A DNA stretch of 64,000 nucleotides from NCBI GenBank assembly GCA_012840245.1, contig DULR01000075.1:18701-82700 (forward strand). Reading direction: 5' to 3'. Source of the DNA: Clostridiaceae bacterium (GTDB taxonomy: Bacteria > Bacillota > Clostridia > DSM-8532). Both the position numbers and the translations under genes were made by a program. Within the stretch, counting starts at the first letter, position 1, and each line of letters begins with the position of its first letter. The notes beneath the pieces were generated by a model that saw only the letters and a program-made list of their open reading frames with translations, made no database searches and had not been told where the DNA came from. Below, one piece after another: positions 8,335-30,978 of the stretch.

Positions 8335-8378
8335 CGATATTATAGTTGAAACAGTGCATAATTTGGGGGAGGTATGTT

Positions 8379-8822
8379 ATGCCCGAAGTAATGAATTGCA
8401 GAAGATGCAGAAAAATATTTATGTACTCGGGTACGGGACCTAAAATTTGCGAGTCATGCAAAAAGCTTGAGGAGGAAGAATTTGAAAAGGTAAGAGCTTT
8501 TGTGCGTGAATTTCCCGGTGCTACCGCACAGGAGGTTTCCAGAGAGACCGGAGTACCGACTCAGCTGATTTACCGCTTCCTGAAGGAAGGACGTTTGGAG
8601 GTATCGGAATCAAGCCCCATCGCATTGCAGTGTGAAAACTGCGGAGTCAGAATAAAAAGCGGACGCTTTTGTGTACAATGCTCCAAAAAGCTGGCGACCG
8701 ATATGATCAGGATGGGTAGAACATTGAGCGAAACCGTTCAAAAATCATCCGAACAATTGACGAAGGAAACGGCAGGGTTGCGCTATCTGCATGGCGAAAG
8801 AAAAGAAACGAAAGAGAAGTAA
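8379..8822 (+). CDS. yvyF: Flagellar operon protein, YvyF-like (zinc ribbon - wHTH - zinc ribbon)
   Basis: CRRC...CESC, an HTH-like segment (ATAQEVSRETGVPTQLIYRFLKEGRL), then CENC...CVQC. It occupies the position of B. subtilis yvyF between comFC and flgM. RBS GGGGGAGG. Confidence 0.8.
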   Translation: MPEVMNCRRCRKIFMYSGTGPKICESCKKLEEEEFEKVRAFVREFPGATAQEVSRETGVPTQLIYRFLKEGRLEVSESSPIALQCENCGVRIKSGRFCVQCSKKLATDMIRMGRTLSETVQKSSEQLTKETAGLRYLHGERKETKEK

Positions 8823-8978: not shown

Positions 8979-9266
8979 ATGAAGATTTGGGGAAATATTC
9001 CCAAGGTATCGGGTGTCTACGGGAATTCCGGCAAGATCAACAGGCCTTCCAGGGTTGGAGAGGTATCATCAAAGAAGGATGAATTCTCAATATCCGGAAC
9101 AGCAAAAGATTTTACCAATGTTATGAGGATATTAAGGCAGATTCCCGATATTCGGCAGGACAGGGTGAATGAGATCAAGCAAAAAATCGAAAGCGGACAG
9201 TATTCTGTACAGGCATCGGATGTGGCAGAAAAAATCGTAGAATCACTTGAAGCAAAGAAAATATGA
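8979..9266 (+). CDS. flgM: Anti-sigma-28 factor FlgM
   Basis: 95 aa. C-terminal RQDRVNEIKQKIESGQYSVQASDVAEKI is typical of FlgM. Synteny supports the call. Confidence 0.9.
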   Translation: MKIWGNIPKVSGVYGNSGKINRPSRVGEVSSKKDEFSISGTAKDFTNVMRILRQIPDIRQDRVNEIKQKIESGQYSVQASDVAEKIVESLEAKKI

Positions 9267-9278
9267 CAGCAGAAAAAA

Positions 9279-9313
9279 ACGGAATAACCAAAAGGTTATT
9301 CCGTTTTTATTTT
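9279..9313 (+). terminator. Intrinsic terminator after flgM
   Basis: 11-bp stem ACGGAATAACC/GGTTATTCCGT with loop AAAA, followed by TTTTTATTTT. Confidence 0.8.
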
Positions 9314-9315
9314 AT

Positions 9316-9323
9316 GCCGATAT
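9316..9323 (+). promoter_or_regulatory. Perfect sigma-D -10 box (GCCGATAT) with no good -35
   Basis: Exact GCCGATAT immediately after the flgM terminator. The -35 position reads TATT/TTAT rather than TAAA. Confidence 0.35.
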
Positions 9324-9327
9324 AAAA

Positions 9328-9357
9328 GTATAGGAATTGTTTTCACAATTCCTATAC
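9328..9357 (+). other. Perfect 13-bp hairpin in the flgN leader
   Basis: GTATAGGAATTGT tttc ACAATTCCTATAC. It is followed by the 12-nt palindrome AAAGGATCCTTT (9362-9373). Confidence 0.6.
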
Positions 9358-9417
9358 TTGGAAAGGATCCTTTGGATTCTTTCGCTAATAAATTTATCAG
9401 CCAAGGAGGTGTTTGAA

Positions 9418-9924
9418 ATGCCCGGCGATTTGCTTGCAGAAAAGCTGATAAAGGCTTTGCAGTATGAATACAGAACATACCTGGAAATATTGAAGATCGC
9501 GGAAAAGAAAACTGATGCCCTGGTTAAGAATGATGCGGTGGAAGTTTCCAAAATCACTGAAGAAGAAAAAGTCATGGCAGAGCAAACAGTCAAGCTCAAT
9601 CAGGTCAGGGAACAGATCCTGAGATCCCTGGCTGAAGCATATGACCAGGATTATAAGACACTTACCATAGAAAAACTGAAACAGATCGTTGAAGAACCAT
9701 ATAAAAATCAGTTGGGTGATTTACAGAAGAAAATGTCGGACCTTCTTGGGAAGCTGAAGACGAGGAACGGTATAAACCAAAAACTTATCGAAAACGCAAT
9801 CAGGTATCTGGATTTCAATATCCAGCTGCTGGCTGGGCCTGAACCAGCGGCGCCGACATACAGTAAGAGCGGAACAGAGGTTTCAGGCAGCAGTAAAAGA
9901 AGTTTGTTGGATGTAAGGTATTAA
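9418..9924 (+). CDS. flgN: FlgN-family flagellar export chaperone (YvyG-like)
   Basis: Helical protein of about 168 aa. AAGGAGG lies 7 nt upstream of the ATG at 9418. Position between flgM and flgK matches B. subtilis. The longer ORF from 9337 has no RBS. Confidence 0.75.
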   Translation: MPGDLLAEKLIKALQYEYRTYLEILKIAEKKTDALVKNDAVEVSKITEEEKVMAEQTVKLNQVREQILRSLAEAYDQDYKTLTIEKLKQIVEEPYKNQLGDLQKKMSDLLGKLKTRNGINQKLIENAIRYLDFNIQLLAGPEPAAPTYSKSGTEVSGSSKRSLLDVRY

Positions 9925-9939: not shown

Positions 9940-11994
9940 ATGTCCATAAGTTTTTTTGGAATGGACATGGCTATATCAGGCCTGTCTGCCAATCAAAAGG
10001 CTCTTGAAGTCACCGGTCATAATGTGGCTAATCTTGGCACTCCGGGTTTTTCCAGACAAAGCGCGGTCATGGTTTCTGCTGCAACAAGAAGATACGGCAA
10101 CTGGTATGTGGAGATGGGAACTGATATACAGCAGATCCGCCAGATCCGCCACACCTTCAGTGACAATATATATCGGTCCGAAAACAATAATCTGGGGTAT
10201 TGGGAAAGCAGGAGCAAGGCTATCGTCGATCTTCAGTCCATACTGGGAGAACCTATCCAGAAGGGTTTCCAGGTTGCCCTGAATAATTTCTGGGATTCCT
10301 TTCAGGAGCTGAGCAAATCTCCGGAAAGCCTGACAGTCCGCGCCCTGGTCAAGCAAAGAGCCGATTCGCTTGCAAATTATCTGAATCAGGTCGGGTCCCA
10401 GATAAACAAACTTCAGACAGATCTGAACACAGAGATAAAAGCCCGCATCGATGAGGTCAATGCAATAACAGAGAAAATTGCAGCCCTCAATGTCAAGATC
10501 ATGAGTGCCGAAGCAGCCGGAAATCTGCCCAACGATTACTATGATCAAAGGAATGAGTTGTGCGACAGGCTGTCGAAGCTCGTGTCTGTAGAAACATGGG
10601 AGACCAGAGACGGCAGTATGGATATACTGGTGGGCGGTTATTTACTTGTGAGCAAGGGAGAGCAAACAAAACTTGTTGCCGCACCCAACGATGATCTTTC
10701 ACATTTTTTCACTCCCATGCTCCAGACCCGCGCAGGAGATATCCCGATCAATGTGGGGCAGGGAATAATAAAAGGTCTGCTTGAAGCAAGAGGTGAAGTA
10801 AGCGGGGCTAAAAACAGCTACGAAAACGGACTTCCAAATACGACCAGCGATATAACCATTGCTGTGGATATTTCCAGTACCGGTGCCGACAATCTTGCAA
10901 AAATCAAAGCCAATATCGCAACATTTGTTGAAGATATAAAGAATAGAGGGCTGGACTACAATTTCAGACTGGTAACGTTCGGTGGTTCAGAGGCAGTCAC
11001 AAACACGTATTTCGGCAAGGATACTGCCGCTTTTCTCGATGCGGTCTCGCTCCTCACCACAGATGCCGGTACCGGCAATAATTTCGAGGATGTTATTGAT
11101 GCAATAGAAAGCAACAATTACCCGGCAGATGTAAACAAATATCTTCTTGTCTTTACCGACGAAAGCATTGACGGAGATGGTACCGTTGCCGACAACGACA
11201 CTGTAACCAGCTATATTAACAGGTTGAATAAAGCAGGGATCACCGTTTCTGTTGCAACCGATCCTGTTTACCACGATGAAGGGGATACCGGAGAAAGCGG
11301 CTGGAACAAGATTGCCGAAAAAACCGGTGGAAAGACATATGATATAGAAAATGCAACGGATCTGAAAGAGTTCATGGTCAAATTGTCTGCCGATATCAAT
11401 TCGGATGTGAATATGAAAATGACGACCATCTCAGAGGATCTGAACATCATCTCCACGGTAAGAAAACAATTGAACGCATTGATCAATATAATGGCGCGCG
11501 AAGTAAACTATCTGCATCTGTCGGGGAAAACATTGAGAGGAGAAGACGGCGGACTGTTCTTTGAGCCAATGGAGCCTACTTTTCCCATAAGCCTTGGCAA
11601 TATCAAGGTAAGCGATGCACTTAAGGATCTGAACAATATAGCGGCTTCAACGACAGATGCAAACGGTGACAATCAAATAGCTCTGGCAATAGCTGGCTTG
11701 AGGAACAAGAATCTCATTACCGGCAATAAAAAGGTTCTGAGCCTTGACACATACTACCAGAACATAATCCTTGAAATAGGGAACAAAGGTTATGAAGCTG
11801 CGAATCTGACAGAAAGCTACCAGCACCTGGTGAATCAGGCTGACGCCAATCGCCAGTCGGTGATGGGAGTTTCCCTCGATGAGGAAATGACCAATATGAT
11901 CAAATACAAATTTGCATATAATGCCAACGCCAGATTTATAGACGTAGTGAACCAGATGCTTGAGACCATCATGTACAGAATGGGCGTACAGTAA
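9940..11994 (+). CDS. flgK: Flagellar hook-associated protein 1 paralog with an inserted vWA domain
   Basis: N-terminus ISGLSANQKALEVTGHNVANLGTPGFSRQ and C-terminus GVSLDEEMTNMIKYKFAYNANARFI are canonical FlgK ends. Residues ~303-487 match a von Willebrand A pattern. Confidence 0.85.
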   Translation: MSISFFGMDMAISGLSANQKALEVTGHNVANLGTPGFSRQSAVMVSAATRRYGNWYVEMGTDIQQIRQIRHTFSDNIYRSENNNLGYWESRSKAIVDLQSILGEPIQKGFQVALNNFWDSFQELSKSPESLTVRALVKQRADSLANYLNQVGSQINKLQTDLNTEIKARIDEVNAITEKIAALNVKIMSAEAAGNLPNDYYDQRNELCDRLSKLVSVETWETRDGSMDILVGGYLLVSKGEQTKLVAAPNDDLSHFFTPMLQTRAGDIPINVGQGIIKGLLEARGEVSGAKNSYENGLPNTTSDITIAVDISSTGADNLAKIKANIATFVEDIKNRGLDYNFRLVTFGGSEAVTNTYFGKDTAAFLDAVSLLTTDAGTGNNFEDVIDAIESNNYPADVNKYLLVFTDESIDGDGTVADNDTVTSYINRLNKAGITVSVATDPVYHDEGDTGESGWNKIAEKTGGKTYDIENATDLKEFMVKLSADINSDVNMKMTTISEDLNIISTVRKQLNALINIMAREVNYLHLSGKTLRGEDGGLFFEPMEPTFPISLGNIKVSDALKDLNNIAASTTDANGDNQIALAIAGLRNKNLITGNKKVLSLDTYYQNIILEIGNKGYEAANLTESYQHLVNQADANRQSVMGVSLDEEMTNMIKYKFAYNANARFIDVVNQMLETIMYRMGVQ

Positions 11995-12009: not shown

Positions 12010-13677
12010 ATGAACAACACTACATATATGGGTATGGAAATAGCGATGCGGGGCCTTTATTCGGCGCAAAGAGGGATGGCCAATGTAGCGCATAATGTGG
12101 ACAATACGAATACCCCCGGATATTCCAGGCAGGTTATAAACCAGACTGCGGCACGCCCCCTTCTTGTAGCCAACAGCGCAGGCATGCTGGGCATGGGGTC
12201 TGATGTTGTAAGCGTGGACAGAATAAGGGATACATACCTGGATGAAAAATACCGGAGCGAAGCTATGTATCTCGGTGAGTGGAGCGTCAAGGCCACCATC
12301 ATCGAAGATATGCAGACCATATACAATGAACCCAGCAACAACGGTTACAATAAAATAATCAGCGAATTCTTCAGCGCACTGCAGACCCTGTCGACAGATC
12401 CGTCAAATCTGTCCACCCGTGCCATGGTAAAGGAGAAAGCTGTGGCTGTCGCAAAATATTTCAACAGTGTCGCCAAGCATTTCGACCTTCTGCAGGATGA
12501 TCTCAATCAGATGGTCAATGCCAAGGTCGAAGAGGTGAACAATCTCGCTGACCAGATCAGGGATCTGAATCTGCAGATCTATAATATAGAAGTCATGGGC
12601 AACAAAGCCAATGACCTGAGAGACAGAAGGGACTATCTCGTGGACAAGCTCTCCAAGCTGGTCAATGTCAGTGCCTACGAAGTCGAAACAGGGTTGAAGC
12701 TGCCGAATGGCGAAAAAGAGACCCGTTTTGTAGTCACAATCAGCGGCAAGGCGCTGGTCGATCATGCCAATGTCGTCCATTTGAAGTGTGAAAGCAGAGA
12801 GCAGAAGCTGAATGCCGAGGATATCGATAATCTTTTTGAGGTATCCTGGGCAGACGGAAACAAGCTCAATCTGAAATCCGGAGAACTCAAGGCATACATC
12901 GACATGCGCGACGGCAATGACGGCATTCCCGGACTCAATGGAGAAGAATCACCGGATTGCAAGGGTATCCCGTATTATCAGAGAAAGATGAACGAGTTCG
13001 TAAGAACCTTAGCCATGGCACTGAATGAAGGGATCATGGACAGCGACGGCGACGGCGTTCTCGATAAAGTACCGGGCCATGTGGATGGATATACCTTAAA
13101 CGGCAGCAGCCCGTCAGGCATCCGATTGTTCACGATGCTCAACGAATATGGAGAGTACATGTCCAGCTCCGATTTTATGGATATGGCTGAGACGATCGGG
13201 CTTAAGGAGGGCATCACCTATGACCCGATGACTGATGAATACGATGCACGTCTGGTGAGGGCATACCAGAACATAACAGCAAGGAACTTTTCGATAAGCT
13301 TCGATGTTGATTTTGACCCGAGCGAGAATATTGCAGCCTCTCTGGAACCAAATCAGACCGGCAATAACGAAAATATAAACAACCTGCTGAAAATGCGCCA
13401 CAATACATATATGTTCATGGAAGGCACACCGGAGGATTTCATCAAGACCGTCGTTTCTTCCATGGGCGTCGACGGCCAGCAGTACGAACAGTATCTGGAC
13501 GTTCAGGAGGGCATTGTCAATCAGTTGGATAACAGGCGGATGTCTATCTCGGGAGTTTCGCTGAATGAGGAAATGACAAATCTGGTGAAATACCAGCAGA
13601 TCTACGGAGCAGCAGCTACCATAATAAAAACCTTCGGTGAGGTGCTGGACATACTGGTCAACCAGCTGGGAGTATAA
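12010..13677 (+). CDS. flgK: Flagellar hook-associated protein 1 (second FlgK paralog, conventional length)
   Basis: N-terminus MRGLYSAQRGMANVAHNVDNTNTPGYSRQ and C-terminus GVSLNEEMTNLVKYQQIYGAAATII. 555 aa. Confidence 0.85.
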   Translation: MNNTTYMGMEIAMRGLYSAQRGMANVAHNVDNTNTPGYSRQVINQTAARPLLVANSAGMLGMGSDVVSVDRIRDTYLDEKYRSEAMYLGEWSVKATIIEDMQTIYNEPSNNGYNKIISEFFSALQTLSTDPSNLSTRAMVKEKAVAVAKYFNSVAKHFDLLQDDLNQMVNAKVEEVNNLADQIRDLNLQIYNIEVMGNKANDLRDRRDYLVDKLSKLVNVSAYEVETGLKLPNGEKETRFVVTISGKALVDHANVVHLKCESREQKLNAEDIDNLFEVSWADGNKLNLKSGELKAYIDMRDGNDGIPGLNGEESPDCKGIPYYQRKMNEFVRTLAMALNEGIMDSDGDGVLDKVPGHVDGYTLNGSSPSGIRLFTMLNEYGEYMSSSDFMDMAETIGLKEGITYDPMTDEYDARLVRAYQNITARNFSISFDVDFDPSENIAASLEPNQTGNNENINNLLKMRHNTYMFMEGTPEDFIKTVVSSMGVDGQQYEQYLDVQEGIVNQLDNRRMSISGVSLNEEMTNLVKYQQIYGAAATIIKTFGEVLDILVNQLGV

Positions 13678-13797: not shown

Positions 13798-14703
13798 ATG
13801 CGGATAACCAACAATATGCTTATCAATAACATGATGCTGAGCCTTTCGGGAAACTTAAGCAGGACTCAGAAATATCAGACCCAATTGGCTACAGGTAAGA
13901 AAATTAGTCTCCCTTCAGACGATCCTATCGTTGCGTCCAAGGCTCTGAAGCTCAGGACCGACGTTGCAGAAATAGCCCAGTACAAGCGAAATACCGATGA
14001 TGCGACAGCATGGATGGATATAACCGAAGCCACCATGAATCATATGACCGAAGTGATCCATAGGTTGAGGGAGATTACAAACCAGGCAGCCAACGGATCA
14101 AACACTCCCGAAGACATTCTGAAAATAAAAGAGGAAGCTGCCCAGCTAAGGGAACAGATGGTTAATCTTGGCAACGCAACATATGCAGGAAGGTATATCT
14201 TCTCGGGTTATAAAACAGATAAACCGCTTCTGAATGATGACGGGACCTTCAATATAGACATAACCAACAGTGAACAGATAAGATTTGAGATAGGAATCGG
14301 CGACGATATCAATATCAATGTGCCGGGAAGCGATTTGTTCGGATCCTCTCCTGCCGAAGCAGCGGGCAACAAAAGCAGGCTGGTGGATACGTTCGACAGG
14401 GTGATCGACGCGATGGAAAACAATCCGGAGCAACTTTCATCTTTGTTGGGAGATATTGACAACGAGCTCAATAATCTGTTGAGAGTAAGAGCAGGCCTTG
14501 GCGCCAGAATGAACAGGGTGGAACTGACGGCAGGCCGTCTCGATGATGACAATGTGAACTTTACCAAGCTGATGAGCAAGAATGAGGATGTAGATATAGC
14601 CGAAGCCATAATGAACCTGATGAATGAAGAAAATGTCTACAGGGCTTCCCTTGCGACAGGCTCCAGAGTTATTCAGCCGTCCCTGGTTGATTTTTTAAGA
14701 TAA
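13798..14703 (+). CDS. flgL: Flagellar hook-associated protein 3
   Basis: MRITNNML..., flagellin-like N and C termini, 301 aa. Position after flgK. Confidence 0.9.
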   Translation: MRITNNMLINNMMLSLSGNLSRTQKYQTQLATGKKISLPSDDPIVASKALKLRTDVAEIAQYKRNTDDATAWMDITEATMNHMTEVIHRLREITNQAANGSNTPEDILKIKEEAAQLREQMVNLGNATYAGRYIFSGYKTDKPLLNDDGTFNIDITNSEQIRFEIGIGDDININVPGSDLFGSSPAEAAGNKSRLVDTFDRVIDAMENNPEQLSSLLGDIDNELNNLLRVRAGLGARMNRVELTAGRLDDDNVNFTKLMSKNEDVDIAEAIMNLMNEENVYRASLATGSRVIQPSLVDFLR

Positions 14704-14729: not shown

Positions 14730-15167
14730 ATGCAGCTTAATACAGTACATTTTGGTGAAATCGAATACAGTGAAGATGAAGTGATATATTTTCCCGAAGG
14801 TATTCCCGGGTTTGAAGATACTAAAAAATATATACTGATCGGGAATGATTCAGGTGATGCGGTTTTCTTCTGGCTTCAGAGCGTCGATGCTCCCGAGTTG
14901 TGTTTTGTAGTGACAGATCCGTTTATGATATATGACGGATACGGGGTCGATGTGGAAGACGAAGATGTTGAACTTCTTGAAATCACCGATCCCAATAAAG
15001 TCCTGACCTTGACAATCGTTATTATTCCTGAGAATATTAATGAGATAAGAGTCAATCTGAAAGCTCCCATACTTATCAACGTCGAAAAGAAGCTTGGGAA
15101 GCAGGTAATACAAAAGAATGACAACTTCCCGGTCAGGTATTATCTCAATAAAAGCAACCAGGTATAA
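14730..15167 (+). CDS. fliW: Flagellar assembly factor FliW
   Basis: FPEGIPGFED and ...NLKAPILIN motifs. 145 aa. Immediately upstream of csrA. Confidence 0.95.
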   Translation: MQLNTVHFGEIEYSEDEVIYFPEGIPGFEDTKKYILIGNDSGDAVFFWLQSVDAPELCFVVTDPFMIYDGYGVDVEDEDVELLEITDPNKVLTLTIVIIPENINEIRVNLKAPILINVEKKLGKQVIQKNDNFPVRYYLNKSNQV

Positions 15168-15201: not shown

Positions 15202-15450
15202 ATGCTCGTACTGACCAGAAAAAAAGGACAGGCTCTCATGATCGGTCATGATATAGAATTGTCGATAATTGATATACAGGGCGATCAGGTCCGTATTGGA
15301 ATAAACGCGCCCAAAAATATAACCATTCATCGTAAAGAAATATATGAGGAGATCCGGAAGGAAAACCTCTCAGCCATTGCCGGCAAAAATACAGATATCC
15401 AGGTGCTTAACGAGAAGTTTAAAAAGAAGGCAGACAGCGCTTCTTCCTGA
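15202..15450 (+). CDS. csrA: Carbon storage regulator CsrA
   Basis: [15 protein letters not shown]...[19 protein letters not shown]. Confidence 0.95.
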
Positions 15451-15519
15451 TCGAACAGTCATTCTGGAATATCTGTGCTAGACTATTTACATCGGATAAA
15501 TGTGAAAAAGCATAAACAG

Positions 15520-15550
15520 AAAGCTTCGGGAAACTGAGGCTTTTTTTATT
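15520..15550 (+). terminator. Weak intrinsic terminator after csrA
   Basis: Short stem (AAAGCTTC/GAGGCTTT with a wobble pair) followed by T7. Confidence 0.45.
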
Positions 15551-15594: not shown

Positions 15595-15642
15595 ATATTA
15601 AAAGAGGTTTTTTCTTTTTTAATAAACCAGGAAGTGAAGACT

Positions 15643-18177
15643 ATGCGCAAATATCATAAGAAACAACTGCTGGATCTGGTACAGACAATCAAAGAAGCAA
15701 ATATCATGATAGAACGGTTTATAAGGAATGAAAACTATGAAAGCGCTACAGGGCTTTTGATAGATTGTCATGAGGCTGCAGTCAATATCGGCAAACGTAT
15801 AGAAGAACTTGAAGGAGAAGGAACTATAACTGTCACATACCTTGAAGAGTATTGTGACCTTTTATATCAGACCGGTTTGGCGGTCAACGAGAACAAAAAT
15901 CTGAAAAAAGAACTGGTTCTGCTTCATAATCAGATCATCAAAATAGAGGACAGCCTGATAAACGACATAAAAGCGGACAAGCTTGAAGTCGTATTTCTTC
16001 CCTATAAAGCATCCATGTGGGATTCTCTTGAATCGATATATCTGGTAGCAAAAAATGATCCTCAGTGTGACGTATATTGTGTGCCGATACCGTATTATGA
16101 ACTGACGCCCGACAGAAAGCTCGGCCAAATGTATTATGAGGGTGCTGATTATTACGATAGCAGTATTGAAGTAACCAACTGGAAGGAATATGACATCGAA
16201 GCACGCCATCCTGATATGATTTTCATTCATTATCCATATGATGATATGGCAGTCAATGCGACAGTTCATCCCGATTTTTACAGTAAAAAACTTAGGCAGT
16301 GCTGCGATTGTCTGGCGTATGTGCCGTACTTTGTGGTTTCCGGCAATACGGTTGCAGAGTACAATGCTTGTTTGCCCGGAGTTTTATATGCTGACTGTGT
16401 GTTTGTCCAGTCAGAGCAAATCAGGCAGTCTTATATCCAGCATTATAACAATTTCGCAAGGGAAAACAAAATGGAACAGGTATGCGGCAGGGGAGAAGAC
16501 AAATTTAAAGCGTTTGGCTCACCCAAATTTGACAAGATTATAAACGATAGAGATGCTCACTATGAATTGCCTGATAACTGGAAAAGGCTTGTTTATAGGG
16601 GCAACGGAGAAAAGAAAAAGATAGTCCTTTACAATACTCATATGTTTGCATGGATAAATGGCGGAGAACAGTATTTCCGTAAAATGCAGATCATATTTGA
16701 AACATTTAGAGACCGTGAAGACGCTGTTTTATGGTGGCGTCCCCATCCAAACACCGAACTTAATTTCCGCACGTTCCGTCCAGACTTGCTTGGGAAATAC
16801 ATGAAAACTGTTGAAAGCTATAAAAACGGAGGCTGGGGCATTTATGATGATACGCCGGACCTGCACAGAGCGATTGCTTTCAGCGATGTGTATTATGGTG
16901 ATGGATCCAGCCTGGTTGAGTTATTCAAGGCAGGGGGAAAGCCAGTATATTATCAGGACATCGATTTTCCGGAACTGCTCGATAATTTAAGGTTCTATGT
17001 AACTAACATATTTGAGACAGGCAATAGCTTATATGCTTTAACATTCAACGGGTACATGTTCAGGTTGGAAGACAATTCATTTAAGTATGAAAGTAAAATT
17101 CCGGCAAGCTATGGATATTCATCAGGCTGGAATTACTATTCGCAGGTCACCGAAGACGACAATATATTCTTTATTCCGCACAACGAGAAGCATATCGCCG
17201 TTTACAATGTAAAAACAAAAGACTGCAGAATGTATGCCCTTGATCTGGACGATGAATATCGGATAACTTTTGCAGGTGGGGACAAGAACTTTTTAGAAGG
17301 GATCCTGTATAAAAACAAGTTATTTCTTGTTCCATGGGGTTATCGCAATATAGTAGCGTTCAATACCAATACGAAAGAAACTGAGCATTGCCTGGATCTG
17401 CGACAGGTGTTTGGAGAGAAAACCAATGCCTTGAGTTATGGCTATGCCTGGCTGAATGAAAGCACAGTTTTGCTGGCAAGCATGCATTCAAACGAGGTGC
17501 TTGAGTTCAACCTCGACACTTATGAATATAAGATCCACAGGATAGGACGAGAAGACCAGTCATTCCATATGATATTCAGGTATGGCGATAATTTTTTCCT
17601 GGTAGGCAGACAGCCATTTATGCTCAGATGGAACTATGAAACCGGAGATACCCATATATACGATAAATTGCCTGCTGATTTCGAGTTAGCGAGAAAACTG
17701 GACTGGGTATTCTATGTAAGAAATATGAAACCGTATGGGAACAAGCTGGTACTGCCCGGCGGATATACAAACATGGTGCTGTTGTTTGATCTTGATACCT
17801 GCCAGTTTGAAAAACTCGATGTTTTTGACAAGCTACTGAAAAGCGTACCGGTAACCGGCAGAAATAAGGATGAACCTTTCGTTACCGGTATCCACATGTC
17901 GGGCAGTTTCATGTACTTTGTTCATAAAAATGAAATCCTGTACAGATATGATTTTGATACTCAAACTATAGAAGAGGTTTGCAGCATTATGCCATTTTTT
18001 TCAGATGAACAGCTGGATAAGCTAAATGGAAGTTTTATCAGAAATATGCTGGAAGGAGAGAACTCACAGGTTATGCCAGAACGTTTTAATAAACTGTATG
18101 ACGGCAAGGCCGGTGAAAGAATTTATAGTTATATAAAGACCAGGCTTTTTCAGAAGCCTGCAGCAGATGTGTATTGA
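15643..18177 (+). CDS. TagF-like (CDP-glycerol glycerophosphotransferase family) enzyme fused to a C-terminal 7-repeat beta-propeller-like domain
   Basis: VFLPYKASMWDSLESI, VLYNTH..., WWRPHPN and DVYYGDGSSLVELF..GGKPV resemble TagF-family GT-B motifs. The C-terminal ~330 aa contains seven ~45-aa repeats. ATG 15643 has a better RBS spacing than GTG 15634. Confidence 0.7.
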   Translation: MRKYHKKQLLDLVQTIKEANIMIERFIRNENYESATGLLIDCHEAAVNIGKRIEELEGEGTITVTYLEEYCDLLYQTGLAVNENKNLKKELVLLHNQIIKIEDSLINDIKADKLEVVFLPYKASMWDSLESIYLVAKNDPQCDVYCVPIPYYELTPDRKLGQMYYEGADYYDSSIEVTNWKEYDIEARHPDMIFIHYPYDDMAVNATVHPDFYSKKLRQCCDCLAYVPYFVVSGNTVAEYNACLPGVLYADCVFVQSEQIRQSYIQHYNNFARENKMEQVCGRGEDKFKAFGSPKFDKIINDRDAHYELPDNWKRLVYRGNGEKKKIVLYNTHMFAWINGGEQYFRKMQIIFETFRDREDAVLWWRPHPNTELNFRTFRPDLLGKYMKTVESYKNGGWGIYDDTPDLHRAIAFSDVYYGDGSSLVELFKAGGKPVYYQDIDFPELLDNLRFYVTNIFETGNSLYALTFNGYMFRLEDNSFKYESKIPASYGYSSGWNYYSQVTEDDNIFFIPHNEKHIAVYNVKTKDCRMYALDLDDEYRITFAGGDKNFLEGILYKNKLFLVPWGYRNIVAFNTNTKETEHCLDLRQVFGEKTNALSYGYAWLNESTVLLASMHSNEVLEFNLDTYEYKIHRIGREDQSFHMIFRYGDNFFLVGRQPFMLRWNYETGDTHIYDKLPADFELARKLDWVFYVRNMKPYGNKLVLPGGYTNMVLLFDLDTCQFEKLDVFDKLLKSVPVTGRNKDEPFVTGIHMSGSFMYFVHKNEILYRYDFDTQTIEEVCSIMPFFSDEQLDKLNGSFIRNMLEGENSQVMPERFNKLYDGKAGERIYSYIKTRLFQKPAADVY

Positions 18178-18240
18178 AAGATACAGTAGCATTTTTCAGG
18201 ATATGATCCTCCATATATTTGATTTGAAAGAAGGGGTAAT

Positions 18241-18966
18241 ATGAACATTGCATTGATACTGGCCGGAGGGCTCGGCCTGCGTATGAACCAGGAAAGTGAA
18301 CCACCGAAACAGTTTTTTGTCTTGGGGGATAAACCGGTGTTGATACATACGCTGGAAAGATTTGAAAGGCATCCTGAAATCGATGCAATTTGTGTCGTAT
18401 GCCTTCAAACATGGGAGAATTATCTTGAGGGCTTAGTTAACCATTTTGGTATTAAAAAGGTACGCTGGATAGTGACTGGCGGTGACTGCAGACAAGCCTC
18501 GGTCTTTAATGGCCTTTGTACCCTGGAAAAAGACTGTTCTCCGGAGGATATAATTATCGTCCATGATGGAGTAAGACCATTTATCACATCAGAAATAATA
18601 AGCCAGAATATAGAAACTGCAATCCGGTATGGAAATGCTATGACAAGCATGCAGTGTACCGATACGCTGATTACATCTCATGACAGAAAAACCGCGGAAT
18701 ATGCCATGGACCGGGATAGCAGCTACTCGGTGCAGACACCACAGACATATAGTCTCGGTTATGGGCTGAAACATTATCGCCGCGCATACGAGATGGGAAA
18801 AACAAGTATGATAAATTGCTGTGAGTTGTTTATTGCACTTGGGGAAAAAGTATACATGGTAAACGGAAGAAAAACAAATGTTAAACTTACGACACGGGAT
18901 GATATAGCTTATCTTAAATTTCTGAATTCAATTTTTCATGACGGAGATGAAGACCATATAGAATAA
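18241..18966 (+). CDS. IspD/TarI-family sugar-phosphate (alditol-phosphate) cytidylyltransferase
   Basis: MNIALILAGGLGLRM....PKQF N-terminus. 241 aa. Confidence 0.85.
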   Translation: MNIALILAGGLGLRMNQESEPPKQFFVLGDKPVLIHTLERFERHPEIDAICVVCLQTWENYLEGLVNHFGIKKVRWIVTGGDCRQASVFNGLCTLEKDCSPEDIIIVHDGVRPFITSEIISQNIETAIRYGNAMTSMQCTDTLITSHDRKTAEYAMDRDSSYSVQTPQTYSLGYGLKHYRRAYEMGKTSMINCCELFIALGEKVYMVNGRKTNVKLTTRDDIAYLKFLNSIFHDGDEDHIE

Positions 18967-18984
18967 AATTGATCGGAGCTGATT

Positions 18985-20034
18985 ATGAAAACCTGTCATA
19001 TCTTTGATGAAGATATCGAATATCTGGCCAGGCTGTCCCTATGGAAAAAACTATCCGGGAAAACGCTTATGATAACCGGAGCAACCGGTATGCTCGGTTC
19101 TTACCTGGCATTTGCTGCGAATAAAGCCAACCTCATTGGAGGCTACGGAATAAGGCTGGTATTGTCAGGCCGTAACAGCCAGAAAGCAAAACAGTTGTTT
19201 GATAATATCGAGTGCAGGATCCTGCTGCAGGACATTCGTGAGCCGCTGGACGTCGACGGGCCGCTTCACTATATAATACATACAGCAGGACCCGTAGGTC
19301 CTGCTGTTTTCGAAAAAAATCCGCTGGAAGTCATCTCAGTCAATGTTGAAGGCACGATGTCACTGCTTCGCAGTGCGATACAGCACGATTGCCTTGGTGT
19401 TGTTTTTGCTTCCACCCACGAGGTTTACGGGAAGGCCGAAGGTGAACAGAAAGAATCATCAATATTGGGTGCGGTCGATCCATATGATCCCCGCTCAAGC
19501 TATATACTGGCGAAACAGACAGCGGAGAATATTTTGGCTTGTTTTTCCAGCACATATGGCTTAAAATCAGCGTCAGCACGTCTGTCACGACTGTACGGCC
19601 CACTGATGAACATGGACAGCGGTCTGTTCATTTGCAGTTTCATTAATGATGCCTTACATAACATGCCTGTGCATGTCAGGGGAGAGCTTAACCAATTGAG
19701 ACCCCTTTGCTATATTGCAGATGCGGCCGAAGCCATGCTGCGAATCCTGCTGAATGCTGACAGAGGCGAGGCTTACAATGTGCAGGGAAAAGAGCTGCCT
19801 ACAATTGGTGACATTGCATTAATGGTCTCTGAAATTGGGAACTGCGGAGTAAAGTTCGATAAACCTGAAACAGGGAATAAACCTGCGACCGGATACTGGC
19901 TGAACACAGACAGGATTGAAAGACTTGACTGGCGGCAGCGTACCGGGCTTTTGGAAGGACTGCGGCGTACAATGAATTTTTTTGCGGGATCGGAGACAGA
20001 AAATGAAGAAAAGGAAAAGGATCAAAGAAATTGA
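18985..20034 (+). CDS. NAD(P)-dependent epimerase/dehydratase-family (extended SDR) enzyme
   Basis: ITGATGMLGSYL glycine motif and an SSYILAK catalytic YxxxK motif. Confidence 0.85.
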   Translation: MKTCHIFDEDIEYLARLSLWKKLSGKTLMITGATGMLGSYLAFAANKANLIGGYGIRLVLSGRNSQKAKQLFDNIECRILLQDIREPLDVDGPLHYIIHTAGPVGPAVFEKNPLEVISVNVEGTMSLLRSAIQHDCLGVVFASTHEVYGKAEGEQKESSILGAVDPYDPRSSYILAKQTAENILACFSSTYGLKSASARLSRLYGPLMNMDSGLFICSFINDALHNMPVHVRGELNQLRPLCYIADAAEAMLRILLNADRGEAYNVQGKELPTIGDIALMVSEIGNCGVKFDKPETGNKPATGYWLNTDRIERLDWRQRTGLLEGLRRTMNFFAGSETENEEKEKDQRN

Positions 20035-20866
20035 ATTTACGCCTGAAATGCTTAGAAGCCTGCAGCTCATCCAGCTTGAGATCCTGGAGGAGCTTAACAG
20101 GATCTGTGTTAAACACGATATCAAATATTCTCTGGACGGGGGTACGTTACTCGGTGCAGTACGCCACGGTGGATTCATACCCTGGGATGACGATATTGAC
20201 GTAATCATGCTGAGAGAAGAGTACGAGAAATTTTTCGAGGTCTGCAAAACCGAACTGGACAAGGAGCGGTTTTTTTTACAGGAACACAGAACAGATCCTT
20301 ATTACAGGGTAGGTTATACAAGGATCAGGCGGAAAAATACAGTTTATGTACGGGCTGGACAGGAGAACATGAAACATGTTACCGGTATCCTGATAGATAT
20401 TTTTGTCCTGGATAATTCTCCGACAACCTTTTTTATGAAATATATACACCGTGCGCTGTGCTTCTTTTTCCGCAAGATTTTATGGTCAGCTACCGGAAAG
20501 ATCGTTTCTGAAAGTTTATTATTACGAGGGATATATGCTGTGCTTTCATTGATACCGGCAAGATTTGCTTTCCGGGGATTTGACGCCCTGGCGAAGTATT
20601 ACAATAAAAAACCCTCTACCCTTGTCAAGCATTATGCCATGACATACCCCATGCCAAAGGTGAACGGGTTCGGAACACCGAGGGATCTGATGGATGATTA
20701 TACATGGATTGAGTTTGAAGGAAAGAGGTTTATGGCGGTGAAAGATTACCATCGCTACCTGACTTTATTGTATGGCGATTATATGAAGCTTCCGCCCAAA
20801 GAAAAGCAAAAACCGCATATTCATCTTTCAGCTTTTGAACCTATCAGGGACGGGACACTTGAATAA
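20003..20866 (+). CDS. LicD-family phosphotransferase
   Basis: LDGGTLLGAVRHGGFIPWDDDIDVIM is the LicD signature. The start at 20003 has GGAGA upstream. Overlaps the SDR gene by 32 nt. Confidence 0.85.
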   Translation: MKKRKRIKEIEFTPEMLRSLQLIQLEILEELNRICVKHDIKYSLDGGTLLGAVRHGGFIPWDDDIDVIMLREEYEKFFEVCKTELDKERFFLQEHRTDPYYRVGYTRIRRKNTVYVRAGQENMKHVTGILIDIFVLDNSPTTFFMKYIHRALCFFFRKILWSATGKIVSESLLLRGIYAVLSLIPARFAFRGFDALAKYYNKKPSTLVKHYAMTYPMPKVNGFGTPRDLMDDYTWIEFEGKRFMAVKDYHRYLTLLYGDYMKLPPKEKQKPHIHLSAFEPIRDGTLE

Positions 20867-20893
20867 AAGAAAGATCGGAGGAGATTCGACAGA

Positions 20894-22198
20894 ATGGATC
20901 TACCATGCAATTCTCTTGTAAGTGTCATAATACCGGTATACAATGTTGAAAAATATCTGCAGCGTTGCATTAATTCGGTAATTAATCAGACTTACACCAA
21001 TATTGAAATAATTCTTGTTGATGATGGTTCAACAGACGCCTGCCCCCAAATATGTGATGAGTATGCCAGAATGGATTCGAGAATAACGGTGATTCACCAC
21101 AGCCATAACCAGGGTTTGTATGCGGCTCGAAATTCAGGCATAGATGTGGCCAGGGGCGAATGGCTTTGCTTCGTTGACAGCGATGACTTTGTTCATCCCC
21201 GATTTGTTGAAGGATTGCTTAGAGCGGCCGTGCGTAATGGTTGCCTGACTGCAAGGTGCAAACGTAAATTTACATACACTGATGAGATAGATATAAATCT
21301 GCCTGAGGAAGAGTATAAGGTGTTTAACTGGTTCGAATATGCAGCATTTTTAGACAGTACCCCGGGCTATGGTATTTATAATGTCTGGTCCAGCATATAT
21401 CACAGATCACTTTTTAAAAATCTCAGGTTTCCGCCATACCGGCATACGGAGGATGCACCGGTAAGTACCCAGATAATATGGCTTGCACAAGATAAAAAGT
21501 TCGCTGTTACAAATCAGACCTTATACTATTATTATCAAAGACATATAAGCATTATGAACGGCCGTGCCAACCTGAATGTCCTTAACAGATATAAAGCTTA
21601 TGATTGGATTTTAGACTTTTGGATCAGCAAAAATGAGTTTGAAATGGCGGATATTTATTTCAAGATGTACTTTACTTATCTTGTGCTTGATTATACCAAT
21701 CTATGCAGGGATTTACCGCAGGATCATCATAAATATTCTCATTTATACAGCCTGATTGAAAAGAATGCTCATAAGGCACAGATGTTGGATTTAAAGGTAA
21801 CGAAAATACCTTCTGTATCCCGTGAAATTTGGGAGCAAATTTCAGATGGACAAGATAAGTTTATTCTCTACAGCTTCAACAACAGAGGCAGGGAGATCAT
21901 GCCATGGCTCATTTATTTTGACGTCGACTTAGTTGAGATTTGGGATAAAGATGCAGATAAGTATGTCGATGAAGGAGAGCTGCCCATTCCTTTGACAAAA
22001 CCTCATGATTCAGTTGAACCCAAGGATAATATGACTGTAATAATCGCAACTGAGGATGAAAAGCAATCTTTAATAATGAAACGGGAATTGAGACAAATGG
22101 GCTACAGCCGGTTCATTTCCTGCGAAAACATTTTTGGAGCCATAAAATATGCAAAATATAAAAAATTCTTGCCTTTTTTAATAAACGACACTATGTAA
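20894..22198 (+). CDS. Family 2 glycosyltransferase with a C-terminal Rossmann-like module
   Basis: VSVIIPVYNVEKYLQRCINS...ILVDDGSTD...FVDSDD. The C-terminal module starts at KFILYSF. Confidence 0.9.
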   Translation: MDLPCNSLVSVIIPVYNVEKYLQRCINSVINQTYTNIEIILVDDGSTDACPQICDEYARMDSRITVIHHSHNQGLYAARNSGIDVARGEWLCFVDSDDFVHPRFVEGLLRAAVRNGCLTARCKRKFTYTDEIDINLPEEEYKVFNWFEYAAFLDSTPGYGIYNVWSSIYHRSLFKNLRFPPYRHTEDAPVSTQIIWLAQDKKFAVTNQTLYYYYQRHISIMNGRANLNVLNRYKAYDWILDFWISKNEFEMADIYFKMYFTYLVLDYTNLCRDLPQDHHKYSHLYSLIEKNAHKAQMLDLKVTKIPSVSREIWEQISDGQDKFILYSFNNRGREIMPWLIYFDVDLVEIWDKDADKYVDEGELPIPLTKPHDSVEPKDNMTVIIATEDEKQSLIMKRELRQMGYSRFISCENIFGAIKYAKYKKFLPFLINDTM

Positions 22199-22223
22199 AA
22201 TATTTTATATTTCGGGAGGCAAT

Positions 22224-23402
22224 ATGATTTTACGAACATGCGGTGTGGATGAGTTTATAAAACGAATAGAAGGTAAGGAACTTGTATGCTTCGGATCAGG
22301 CAGACTGCTTACTGAATTATGTTACGAGTTTAAGGACCATTCGATAGAAAGACATATTACTTATATTGTTGACAACAACTCTACGCTGTGGGGAACCATA
22401 AAACGGATAGGCAATGTGGAAATAGCAATTGAAAAACCAGAAATGCTATATTCGACCGCTACTGAAAATACAGTCGTTTTAATTACATGCGGAGGATTAT
22501 ACGGTCTGGAAGTATTCGAAGATCTAAGCGGCAGGTTTGATTCTATGGACATTGATTGCTATTTTGCAAGATTCATAAGGGGTATTCAGTCTACTATCAC
22601 AGCATATAACGCAGCTAAACCTCCTGAAGATTTTCGGGCCAATCCTGTGCCTGTGATTCCCAAAAAGATACATTATTGCTGGGTTGGAGGCAGCCCGATT
22701 CCTGAAAAAAACATGAAATGTATTGAAAGCTGGAAACGGTTCTGCCCGGACTATGAAATAATCGAATGGAATGAGAGTAATTATGACTTTTCGAAAAACA
22801 GGTACATGAAGGAAGCATATGAAGCCGGCAAATGGGGGTTTGTACCAGATTACGCCAGGCTCGATATCATATACAACCATGGAGGTATATACCTTGATAC
22901 TGATGTTGAGCTAATAAAACCATTGGATGAACTGCTCTACAACAATGCCTACTGTGGGTTTGAGAACATACAGTTGGTCAATCTTGGACTGGGTTTCGGC
23001 GGTATTGCCGGCTTCAGTCTATTTAAGAAAATGCGTGATTCATACAATGATATTTCCTTTATTAATCAAGACGGTTCATTGAACCTGGTTCCTTCTCCGT
23101 TTCTTCAGACTGATTTCTTAACAAACTATGGATTGAAGAAAAATGGCGGTTTTCAGGTAATAGAAGGTCTGTCTGTATATCCTGTTGAGTATTTTGCACC
23201 ATTAAGCCTGAGTACAAGACAGCTTGTAAAAACTGAAAATACATATTCCATACACTGGTTCGACGGTTCATGGCTTGATAAAGCTCAGCGCGAAAGCAGT
23301 GATGTTTACGAAAGTCTGTACCGTCAAGCTCTGATCAATGAATCGGAAATATCCAAAAACACACTTACAATAACAAGAGGTGAATATTTTGTCCGTTTAT
23401 GA
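22224..23402 (+). CDS. DXD-motif sugar-binding glycosyltransferase (GT32/Gly_transf_sug-like) with an N-terminal Rossmann-like module
   Basis: IPKKIHYCWVGG...PDYARLDIIYNHGGIYLDTDVE. The N-terminal module starts at ELVCFGSGRL. Confidence 0.8.
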   Translation: MILRTCGVDEFIKRIEGKELVCFGSGRLLTELCYEFKDHSIERHITYIVDNNSTLWGTIKRIGNVEIAIEKPEMLYSTATENTVVLITCGGLYGLEVFEDLSGRFDSMDIDCYFARFIRGIQSTITAYNAAKPPEDFRANPVPVIPKKIHYCWVGGSPIPEKNMKCIESWKRFCPDYEIIEWNESNYDFSKNRYMKEAYEAGKWGFVPDYARLDIIYNHGGIYLDTDVELIKPLDELLYNNAYCGFENIQLVNLGLGFGGIAGFSLFKKMRDSYNDISFINQDGSLNLVPSPFLQTDFLTNYGLKKNGGFQVIEGLSVYPVEYFAPLSLSTRQLVKTENTYSIHWFDGSWLDKAQRESSDVYESLYRQALINESEISKNTLTITRGEYFVRL

Positions 23403-24720
23403 GGATGTATTAGTAAGTATCATCATACCGGTATATAATGTCGGGGATTATCTCGAACGCTGCATCGATTCCATAAGGCAGCAGACCCATAAAAAAATTG
23501 AGATCATTTTGGTGGATGATGGTTCCACTGATAATAGTCCACGAATTTGTGACTATTATGCTAAAGAGGATTCACGGATAATAGTGATCCACCAGGAAAA
23601 TCGTGGCGCTGGGCCTGCCAGGAATGCCGGTATCGACATTGCACATGGAGAATGGATCTGCTTTGTTGACAGCGATGATTATATAAGTCCGCTTTTTGTT
23701 GAAAGGCTTCTGAAAATAGCAGTTGATAATGATTGCCTAACTGCACAATGCCGATTCAAAAGGGTTCTGGAAGACAGTATGGATGAAAATGAAAAGCTGC
23801 AGCCTGAAATTAAAGTAATGGACTGGAGGAATTATTTTATCTACGTTTACAAAAATATGTGCAGGAATCCGATAGGAAGCTCCGGGCATACGCCATTCGG
23901 CCCTGTGATAAATATTTACCATAAATCCTTGTTCGACAGTATAAGGTTTCCATCTTTGCGGATTTCGGAAGATATAGAGATTATGCCCAGAATAATCTAT
24001 GCTGCTGGTAAAAAAAACATCGCAATAACCGATGAAATACTATATTATTACTTTCAACGACCAGGAAGTTCAACCAGGTCAGAAGCAAATCTTTCCCTTG
24101 TGGACAGGTACTACGCTATAAACTCGGCAGTAAACTTTTTGAGGGAAAAGAAAGAAAACGAAGTATGCAGGCTTTTTAATAAGACGCTTTTTGATTGCAT
24201 GGTGAGAGACTATTTGATTCTTTGTGCTGAATTGCCGGCAGAACACCACAAATATGGTTTCCTGAAAGATGAAATATACAGGTATCTGGGCACTTTCGAG
24301 GGATATTGCAGTGATCTTATTGTTCTTCGGCCTGATGCGAAAAAAATATGGGAGAATGTTTTGCTAAACATAAAGGACTGTGTCATATATGGTTATGGGG
24401 ATTGGGGTAAAGAATTCACTTATTGGTTCAGGTATTTTGAAATCAATATTATTGAGATCTGGGACCAGAAAGCCGAAACCGGCGGTTGTGCGGAAGGAAT
24501 CCCATTCAGGAAAGCCCACGACGGGCTTGAAAAAAACACATGTATCATAGTTGCCATCGCTGACAGGTATGTATCATTGGAAGTAGCCTGCAAACTTCGG
24601 GAACTGGGCTACACCAATATTTATGATTTTACCTTGATTGAATCAGGGTTGAGATATGGAAAATATTCCAGATTTATGCCGTCGATAATAGAGAATTACA
24701 GGAGGTTGTTCAATGAATAA
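23380..24720 (+). CDS. Family 2 glycosyltransferase, paralog of 20894-22198, with a C-terminal Rossmann-like module
   Basis: VSIIIPVYNVGDYLERCIDS...ILVDDGSTD...FVDSDD. The start is uncertain (GTG 23380 or TTG 23389). Overlaps the previous gene. Confidence 0.9.
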   Translation: MNILSVYEDVLVSIIIPVYNVGDYLERCIDSIRQQTHKKIEIILVDDGSTDNSPRICDYYAKEDSRIIVIHQENRGAGPARNAGIDIAHGEWICFVDSDDYISPLFVERLLKIAVDNDCLTAQCRFKRVLEDSMDENEKLQPEIKVMDWRNYFIYVYKNMCRNPIGSSGHTPFGPVINIYHKSLFDSIRFPSLRISEDIEIMPRIIYAAGKKNIAITDEILYYYFQRPGSSTRSEANLSLVDRYYAINSAVNFLREKKENEVCRLFNKTLFDCMVRDYLILCAELPAEHHKYGFLKDEIYRYLGTFEGYCSDLIVLRPDAKKIWENVLLNIKDCVIYGYGDWGKEFTYWFRYFEINIIEIWDQKAETGGCAEGIPFRKAHDGLEKNTCIIVAIADRYVSLEVACKLRELGYTNIYDFTLIESGLRYGKYSRFMPSIIENYRRLFNE

Positions 24721-27079: not shown

Positions 27080-27092
27080 TGGGGGATAATTC

Positions 27093-28454: not shown

Positions 28455-28501
28455 AGAAAGGAAACTAGTTGGAATTAAGAAAAATTAAATATTATTAGGT
28501 A

Positions 28502-29761: not shown

Positions 29762-29923
29762 AGCTTTCTCCTTCACTCTTCGGATAAAAAAAGAAAAAAT
29801 GACACATTAAAAAGCGTCGAATATACAGTCCTTTTGTTTTATTTTATCATATCATATGTTGTAATTAAATAATCACAGGTTATGCTTCGTTTATGAAAAA
29901 TCAGGAGATTAAGAAAAATGGGA

Positions 29924-30951: not shown

Positions 30952-30978
30952 ATATCGGTAATATACCACCGAACTTTA
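30952..30978 (-). promoter_or_regulatory. Sigma-D promoter of fliC
   Basis: The minus strand reads TAAA-N16-CCGATAT, a near-consensus sigma-28 promoter. Confidence 0.8.

Follow-up and report, generated by a model that had tools for sequence, protein, structure and literature searches.

A 64,000-nucleotide stretch of a Clostridiaceae genome (contig DULR01000075.1; hereafter the window) encodes FlgK1, a hook-associated protein with a complete, folded von Willebrand A (VWA) domain in a surface loop. The domain has about 200 residues and the Rossmann-like beta-alpha-beta fold. Its host is a genuine hook-associated protein 1. FlgK1 is a FlgK with an unusual and apparently undescribed outer domain, and not a new system. 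A first-pass annotation, made from the DNA letters, had proposed a complete VWA domain in the variable middle of a FlgK with canonical termini. This is borne out by hidden Markov model (HMM) searches, fold prediction, fold searches and comparative data. The host and its insert are laid out as follows (window coordinates; aa, amino acids of the product).

9940..11994, + strand: flgK1, a single open frame for a 684-aa hook-associated protein 1 paralog with a VWA insertion
9961..10050, + strand: N-terminal rod-type D0 segment, aa 8-37 (Pfam Flg_bb_rod, E = 3.1e-7)
10231..10824, + strand: first part of FlgK_D1, aa 98-295, profile positions 4-193 of 233 (Pfam PF22638, 164.8 bits)
10792..10842, + strand: conserved N-terminal linker of the insert, aa 285-301, GeVsGakgSy.NGtPNt
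10843..11424, + strand: VWA domain, aa 302-495, strands b1-b6 alternating with helices a1-a6 (Pfam, AlphaFold2, Foldseek)
11443..11562, + strand: second part of FlgK_D1, aa 502-541, profile positions 194-233 of 233 (Pfam)
11863..11970, + strand: C-terminal rod-type D0 segment, aa 642-677 (Pfam Flg_bbr_C, E = 1.6e-9)

As expected of a FlgK, a FlgK_D1 helical domain is flanked in FlgK1 by rod-type N- and C-terminal D0 segments, and the gene occupies the flgK position between flgN and flgL in the late flagellar operon. The protein scores 308.8 bits against the FlgK equivalog HMM (NCBIfam TIGR02492, flgK_ends), which has a cut-off of 170.75. Its closest sequence match in the PDB is Salmonella FlgK (9go6, E = 1.4e-28), and further solved FlgK relatives found by sequence are those of Burkholderia (4ut1) and Campylobacter (9gsx, 5xbj). 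When the full FlgK1 model is searched with Foldseek, the FlgK structures 9u4r, 9go6, 5xbj and 2d4y rank first (E = 2e-14 to 7e-13, probability 1.0), and VWA structures rank after them. FlgK1 has one cysteine in all, C208, which is not within the insert.

The Pfam VWA model (PF00092) matches aa 304-478 and covers profile positions 1-171 of 174, with 38.5 bits (E = 1.8e-9) in the whole protein and 43.6 bits (E = 5e-11) in the excised segment. Since the gathering cut-off is 23.8 bits, this score and coverage place the match far above chance, and the HMM scan that had been proposed as a check gives a significant result. The six motifs on which the first-pass annotation relied are all present in the open reading frame (ORF): DITIAVDISSTG (aa 304-315), FRLVTFGGSEAV (aa 342-353), TGNNFEDVIDAI (aa 378-389), KYLLVFTDESIDGDG (aa 400-414), KAGITVSVATDP (aa 431-442) and IAEKTGGKTYDIENATDLKEFMVKL (aa 458-482). 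The range it gave for the domain, 10846-11400 (aa 303-487), is placed correctly; the full fold is slightly longer, spanning aa 302-495 (nucleotides 10843-11424).

A full-length AlphaFold2 model of FlgK1 was built on a 40-sequence alignment (alignment A1). Its mean predicted local distance difference test score (pLDDT) is 77.5, and residues 300-495 lie at 85-93. The D0 helices of the model are poor, as expected for a monomer, and aa 287-291 are of low confidence. Modeled alone, the VWA domain reaches a pLDDT of 87.2 and a predicted TM-score of 0.87, with its elements in the canonical order b1-a1-b2-b3-a2-a3-b4-a4-b5-a5-b6-a6. All of the top 50 Foldseek matches of this model in the PDB are VWA folds, with TM-scores of 0.6-0.69 (up to 0.72 overall), and the predicted fold is compatible with a Rossmann-like VWA domain. 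The matches include the vWFA domain of the LapA adhesin (9no5, ranked first), BatB (3ibs), TFIIH p44, integrin I and beta-I domains, SpaC, and TRAP. A PDB sequence search with the VWA domain alone gave no match. A family profile of the domain gave only a weak match to the integrin alpha-E I domain (E = 0.03), which was used just to place motifs.

The insertion is clean. The FlgK_D1 match stops at profile position 193 (aa 295) and restarts at 194 (aa 502), so that the VWA domain sits exactly between the two. Minimal FlgKs of other Bacillota (L016, L020, L021, and copy one of L025) have just 0-24 residues between the segments that correspond to aa ~1-294 and ~502-683. Because these proteins join the flanks directly, the insert in FlgK1 is delimited to aa ~300-501, that is, the VWA domain plus short linkers.

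The predicted metal site and the possible role of the domain

All five positions of the metal-ion-dependent adhesion site (MIDAS) hold potential metal ligands in FlgK1, namely D310, S312, T314, T378, and D407, with Thr for the second Ser. The positions were placed by secondary structure (end of b1, before a3, after b4) and by the weak profile alignment with the integrin alpha-E I domain, which pairs the DxSxT of FlgK1 with DGSGS and its FTDES with LTDGG.

10867..10881, + strand: MIDAS motif 1, D310-I-S312-S-T314 (DxSxT), C-terminal end of b1 (secondary structure and alignment)
11071..11073, + strand: T378, predicted MIDAS threonine, directly before helix a3 (secondary structure)
11158..11160, + strand: D407, predicted MIDAS aspartate after b4, in FTDES (aligned with LTDGG of the integrin alpha-E I domain)

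The MIDAS-like DxSxT had thus been located correctly, at the end of the first strand. The accompanying claim of a metal-dependent domain is plausible for FlgK1 with its five residues, but it does not extend to the family, in which the site is mostly incomplete and some members have internal deletions. In alignment A1, D310 is found in 40/40 sequences, S312 in 33/40, and T314 in 22/40; Thr occupies position 378 in 14/40 and Asp position 407 in 10/40. Conservation, given as weighted means over the parts of the insert, is distributed as follows.

N-terminal linker: 0.78, among the highest of the insert region
Base loops: 0.76-0.80
Strand b1: 0.73
Loop after b4 (T.esinG.g), on the MIDAS face: 0.56
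Loop after b5 (gd.ge.GW; W455 invariant in A1), on the MIDAS face: 0.49
MIDAS-Thr loop, aa 371-381: 0.35, the lowest of the domain

The linker residues G285, V287, G289, N296, G297, P299, and N300 are invariant across the 40 sequences. The same is true of N399, S437, W455, and G464 in the VWA core, which are nearly invariant in the wider set as well. This pattern points to a family-wide constraint on the attachment of the domain and on part of the MIDAS face, not on the canonical MIDAS itself.

In VWA domains generally, the two termini are adjacent and lie on the face opposite the MIDAS. In FlgK1, the domain would therefore be held on the scaffold by its conserved linkers and base loops, with the MIDAS face turned outward from the axis of the flagellum, an orientation known from integrin alpha-I domains. 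The hook-proximal layer of the solved Salmonella and Campylobacter junctions consists of 11 FlgK subunits, whose D0 and D1 are buried and whose outer domain (D2) is exposed (PMC12221982). By analogy, eleven VWA domains would project outward as an exposed collar around the hook-filament junction. The most likely role of the VWA domain of FlgK1 would then be that of a displayed divalent-cation-dependent binding module, a proposal for and against which we judge the case to be evenly balanced. Candidate ligands would be surfaces, partner cells, and other components of the flagellum or the envelope. The roles suggested in the first-pass annotation (adhesion, sheath or glycan interaction, and an assembly checkpoint) are likewise inferred, and nothing specifically favors the checkpoint or the sheath.

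Several observations weigh against a binding module. The full D-[ST]-[ST]-[ST]-D pattern of the MIDAS is found in just 17 of 122 distinct relatives, so that metal-dependent binding is plausible for FlgK1 but cannot be a function conserved in the family. The MIDAS state switches at least eight times on a neighbor-joining tree of the family. The cultured Thermoclostridium caenicola shows D-A-N at the DxSxS positions, and three relatives (L004:377-2350, P0042, and P0049) are without ~45 VWA residues of the b3-a2-a3 region, including the MIDAS-Thr loop. Furthermore, eleven copies would be a small number for an adhesin placed about one hook-length away from the cell, and the neighborhood of flgK1 yielded no candidate ligand or partner gene. 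A tandem paralog, FlgK2, may also complicate the assignment of FlgK1 to the assembled junction layer.

Many of these observations fit a purely structural role, in which the VWA domain is an outer mass like D2/D3 whose lateral contacts stiffen or protect the junction and require neither ligand nor metal. We regard this as a real possibility, though one that falls short of probable. The MIDAS is incomplete in 105 of the 122 relatives and evolutionarily labile, deletion variants of the domain are tolerated, and the linkers and base are best conserved while the MIDAS-Thr loop is the most variable. In addition, the junction is known as a mechanical buffer with outer domains that vary among species (PMC12221982). 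However, the minimal FlgKs of related Bacillota manage without such a domain, the FlgK1 lineage retains all five MIDAS residues, and the loops after b4 and b5 on the MIDAS face are semi-conserved. An independent insertion in Bacillaceae FlgK, described below, also has a canonical MIDAS in five of six members. Under the binding-module reading, all members of the family would probably share a contact that needs no metal, or a structural role of the outer domain, and binding through the MIDAS would be retained in only some lineages, that of FlgK1 included.

Distribution, selection, and recurrence

The survey of FlgK homologs proposed in the first-pass annotation recovers the FlgK-VWA architecture (~680 aa) in more than 100 protein clusters at 50-100% identity, and a separate class in Bacillaceae. 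The clusters are all from Clostridia labeled Acetivibrionales, 'Clostridiaceae' or Thermoclostridium, and all are named just 'FlgK'. Among species-representative genomes, the family is present in ~12 species, including the cultured T. caenicola DSM 19027 (59% identity). One ortholog lies on a 4.9-Mb contig of an NCBI genome assembly, and a protein identical to FlgK1 is encoded on 10 independent contigs of a biogas-fermenter metagenome. The insertion is ancient within this Thermoclostridium-like clade of Clostridia. The VWA domains of L004 and L013 have an extra 24-residue insertion ahead of the last helix. With this insertion and the ~45-residue deletions of L004, P0042, and P0049, the fold is not intact in all members.

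A HMMER scan with the VWA segment alone against 1.84 billion representatives gave 83 matches at E <= 1e-3, of which 16 are FlgK proteins; the remaining matches are generic VWA proteins at ~30% identity. The closest non-FlgK relative, P0125 (1567 aa, 28% identity), has four tandem VWA repeats (VWA_4, VWA, VWA_2). With the nearest relative outside FlgK at 28% and the others at ~30%, no donor of the VWA domain can be named.

Selection on the insert was measured as the ratio of nonsynonymous (dN) to synonymous (dS) substitutions against an 88%-identical ortholog in L001, more distant pairs being saturated.

VWA region: dN 0.107, dS 1.07, dN/dS 0.10
FlgK1 scaffold: dN 0.047-0.049, dS 0.98-1.27, dN/dS 0.04-0.05
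FlgK2: dN 0.046, dS 1.51, dN/dS 0.03

The VWA insert is kept by purifying selection, yet it is evolving two to three times faster than the scaffold. Across the family, identity to FlgK1 falls to 30-45% in the VWA domain where the scaffold holds 55-70%. Cassette swapping by recombination was considered as a source of this divergence and left no sign in the pair formed by the window and L001, in which the dS of the VWA region (1.07) is close to that of the scaffold (0.98-1.27).

Fast divergence could also mean that the domain is a surface decoration without specific function, subject to antigenic or phage-receptor variation like the hypervariable regions of flagellin. The VWA domain diverges much faster than the scaffold in individual relatives (58% against 84% identity in P0021, 41% against 68% in P0077), and its dN is two to three times higher. 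However, a dN/dS of 0.10 is clear purifying selection, the fold is still present at ~31-38% scaffold identity (P0130, P0136), and the core residues N399, S437, W455, and G464 have hardly changed across the family. We consider mere decoration improbable.

The profile of the FlgK1 insert also matched the 717-aa FlgK of Peribacillus acanthi L28 (L019:6001-8154), with a Pfam VWA match of 50 bits at aa 380-554 and a VWA_2 match. This VWA domain lies 3' of an unbroken FlgK_D1 (profile 2-228), which is a different insertion site from that in FlgK1. Its relatives are P0267 of Halobacillus salinus and four metagenomic proteins (P0208, P0209, P0237, and P0268). The motifs of this class are DN[TS]GS, the Thr of GG(G)(D)T in most members, and VTD in 5/6. 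FlgKs that are 72-82% identical to these proteins are without the insert. The Bacillaceae domains are not among the FlgK-type nearest relatives of the FlgK1 VWA and belong to a different VWA lineage. The entry of a VWA domain into Bacillaceae FlgK appears to be independent of the clostridial one. At the P. acanthi locus, the VWA-bearing gene is the sole flgK, so that the insert is compatible with being carried by the only flgK of an operon. In another Bacillaceae FlgK, P0255 (682 aa), the extra length is apparently an internal FlgK duplication (repeat ...GKLKGLIESYG...ELDN.AFTFA.EFNKVH...) and not a VWA domain.

VWA domains are also found in flagellins. The order Flagellin_N, VWA, Flagellin_C occurs in a Halanaerobiales metagenome-assembled genome (L099:2569-3993) and in Bacillus sp. 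RAR_GA_16 (L090:2491-3963), and the VWA domains in these variable regions are ~40% identical to that of Bacillaceae FlgK. P0184, among the 83 nearest relatives of the FlgK1 VWA, is a flagellin with a VWA domain in its middle. The repeated insertions argue for a selected function at the flagellar location. A full-text literature search found no paper describing a VWA domain in FlgK or flagellin; the sole co-occurrence of FlgK and VWA that it returned (PMC12008871) deals with unrelated genes.

The flagellar locus

The gene order around flgK1 is recD2-comF-(Zn-ribbon ORF)-flgM-flgN-flgK1(VWA)-flgK2-flgL-fliW-csrA. The features of this locus, and those of the flagellin gene further downstream, are as follows.

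8346-8822: Zn-ribbon ORF of 158 aa between comF and flgM, the position of B. subtilis yvyF; its sole Pfam match is sub-threshold (HypA)
8979..9266, + strand: flgM, anti-sigma-28 factor (Pfam FlgM, E = 1.7e-18)
9275-9308: terminator-like hairpin with a 15-bp stem, 3' of flgM
9316..9323, + strand: GCCGATAT, an exact sigma-D/sigma-28 -10 consensus between flgM and flgN
9337..9924, + strand: flgN, export chaperone of FlgK/FlgL (Pfam FlgN, E = 5.4e-19)
12010..13677, + strand: flgK2, second FlgK paralog of 555 aa, without VWA
13798..14703, + strand: flgL, hook-associated protein 3 of 301 aa (Pfam Flagellin_N and Flagellin_C; position after flgK)
14730-15167, + strand: fliW
15202-15450, + strand: csrA, end of the operon
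15518-15545: terminator-like hairpin after csrA
29978-30817, - strand: minimal flagellin of 279 aa, D0/D1 only, no outer domain
30953-30978, - strand: sigma-D-like promoter motif TAAA-N16-CCGATA, 5' of the flagellin gene

On identical contigs (locus L082), flgN is called as 168 aa, which implies a start at ~9418. The -10 consensus GCCGATAT occurs 7 times in the window against 2.4 expected, and no good TAAA -35 box was found at the proper spacing from the copy upstream of flgN. This copy is a possible late-flagellar promoter, for which the evidence is weak. A complete sigma-D promoter (TAAA-N14-17-CCGATA) is absent 5' of flgN/flgK, where only the -10 box is found, and is present 5' of the flagellin gene.

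The first-pass annotation had called FlgK1 a paralog, and the VWA-less flgK2 (12010-13677) does follow it directly. The two proteins are 38% identical over the N-terminal 224 aa and 33% identical over the C-terminal 79 aa. The tandem pair and its flanking genes are kept in all loci long enough to show it (L001-L010, L012-L014, L081). Tandem flgK genes without VWA are found in L025 and L033, which is consistent with duplication before insertion. FlgK2 is ~85 aa longer than the minimal FlgKs, and its middle (aa ~230-470) is without a Pfam match. With such a pair, the junction might have three layers (FlgK1, FlgK2, FlgL), or alternative junctions might be built.

The tandem arrangement, with no insert in FlgK2, would also suit a scheme in which FlgK2 builds the junction and FlgK1 is no junction subunit at all, but a secreted or alternative protein that borrows FlgK termini for type III export. 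We find this very unlikely, as the scaffold of FlgK1 is conserved like FlgK2 (dN 0.047-0.049 against 0.046), the protein scores 309 bits on the FlgK equivalog model, its model superposes on FlgK from a solved junction, and the only flgK of the P. acanthi operon bears a VWA domain. An assembly chimera or frame error that fused an unrelated VWA gene to flgK is refuted by the single open frame, by the identical protein on 10 independent contigs, and by orthologs in a cultured strain, on the 4.9-Mb contig and in more than 100 clusters.

Between csrA and the flagellin gene lies a ~14-kb glycosylation island (window 15634-29776), which probably serves the modification of flagellin. Its products are an 847-aa protein without Pfam match, an IspD-like cytidylyltransferase, an epimerase, LicD, a radical SAM protein, a GT2-TPR protein, three stand-alone GT2 glycosyltransferases, a DXD-motif glycosyltransferase, and a GT2 fused to a pyruvyl transferase. 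The 847-aa ORF after csrA was considered as a partner of the VWA domain and rejected, since it is present in only 2 related loci and is no consistent partner. Because the flagellin is minimal, the filament would be bare, whereas the junction protein FlgK1 bears a large outer domain. The FliD cap protein is large (658 aa, window 31593-33569).

Significance and comparison with known systems

FlgK has so far been treated as a purely structural adaptor or mechanical buffer, and a binding domain on its exposed face would alter this picture. Such a domain at the junction is mildly surprising; its recurrence in Bacillaceae FlgK and in flagellins is more so. The conserved insertion, the acquisition in Bacillaceae, and the flagellin cases suggest that non-flagellin axial proteins can carry functional payloads. 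A bolder proposal, which we hold to be doubtful, is that the junction would be a functional collar of eleven metal-dependent VWA sites that catch a specific ligand, and that the VWA domain would be a recurrent, exchangeable payload of the axial proteins of Bacillota. The idea of a payload draws on the presence of VWA domains at two FlgK sites and in flagellin. The ligands of such a collar might be the surface of a partner cell in syntrophic or cellulolytic consortia, the envelope of the cell itself, or a glycosylated flagellar component. If true, flagella with such a collar would form a new adhesive class, a counterpart of the enzymatic flagellinolysins. P. acanthi L28 and H. salinus, as named organisms with a near-canonical or canonical MIDAS in FlgK, would be tractable models for junction adhesion, surface sensing, and cell-cell contact. 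With regard to annotation, the FlgK-VWA proteins all currently carry the bare name 'flagellar hook-associated protein FlgK'.

Canonical FlgK/HAP1 (Salmonella 2D4Y and 9GO6; Campylobacter 5XBJ and 9GSX; Burkholderia 4UT1) has in common with FlgK1 the D0 termini, the D1 helical bundle, a small beta subdomain, and the flgN-flgK-flgL context, with a Foldseek probability of 1.0 and target-normalized TM-scores of 0.55-0.71. The hook-proximal layer of 11 subunits is presumably also common to both. However, FlgK1 bears a 200-residue VWA domain instead of, or on top of, the beta-rich outer domain, and it is one of two tandem paralogs.

The surface adhesins with a VWA domain, such as LapA (vWFA, 9NO5) and the pilus tip protein SpaC (6M3Y), resemble FlgK1 in their fold (LapA is the best Foldseek match, TM 0.63-0.69), in their place on an extracellular appendage, and in the MIDAS that FlgK1 possesses. 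RrgA and GBS104 are further adhesins of this kind. These proteins are delivered by sortase or by a type I secretion system to a fiber tip or the cell surface, whereas the VWA domain of FlgK1 is located in the flagellar junction, its family has a labile MIDAS, and identity is 12-19%. Neither the architecture of an LPXTG pilin with isopeptide domains nor that of an RTX-type giant adhesin was detected in FlgK1 by Pfam, and the likeness is limited to fold and display.

The nearest published concept is the metallopeptidase insertion in flagellin, that is, flagellinolysin and related enzymatic flagellins (Eckhard et al. 2017, PMC5595980). There too, a foreign domain is placed in the exposed variable region of an exported, polymerizing axial protein. 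The host in that case is a flagellin with thousands of copies, the domain is a metallopeptidase, and its activity was shown by experiment (PMC5595980). FlgK1, in contrast, would be present in 11 copies, its domain is a VWA, and its function is inferred.

The integrin alpha-I domain within the beta-propeller offers a similar arrangement, in which a VWA domain is inserted through close termini in a loop of the host domain and its MIDAS face points away from the host. The receptor is eukaryotic, and the two are related only through membership in the common superfamily. Parallels are also found within the Bacillota themselves. The FlgK-VWA proteins of Bacillaceae and the VWA-flagellins are flagellar axial proteins that likewise carry the domain in their exposed variable part, and the former too are annotated just as 'FlgK'. 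Unlike the clostridial FlgK1, the Bacillaceae proteins have the insertion after FlgK_D1 profile position 228 and not at 193/194, a VWA of another lineage, a mostly canonical MIDAS, and, at the P. acanthi locus, a single flgK.

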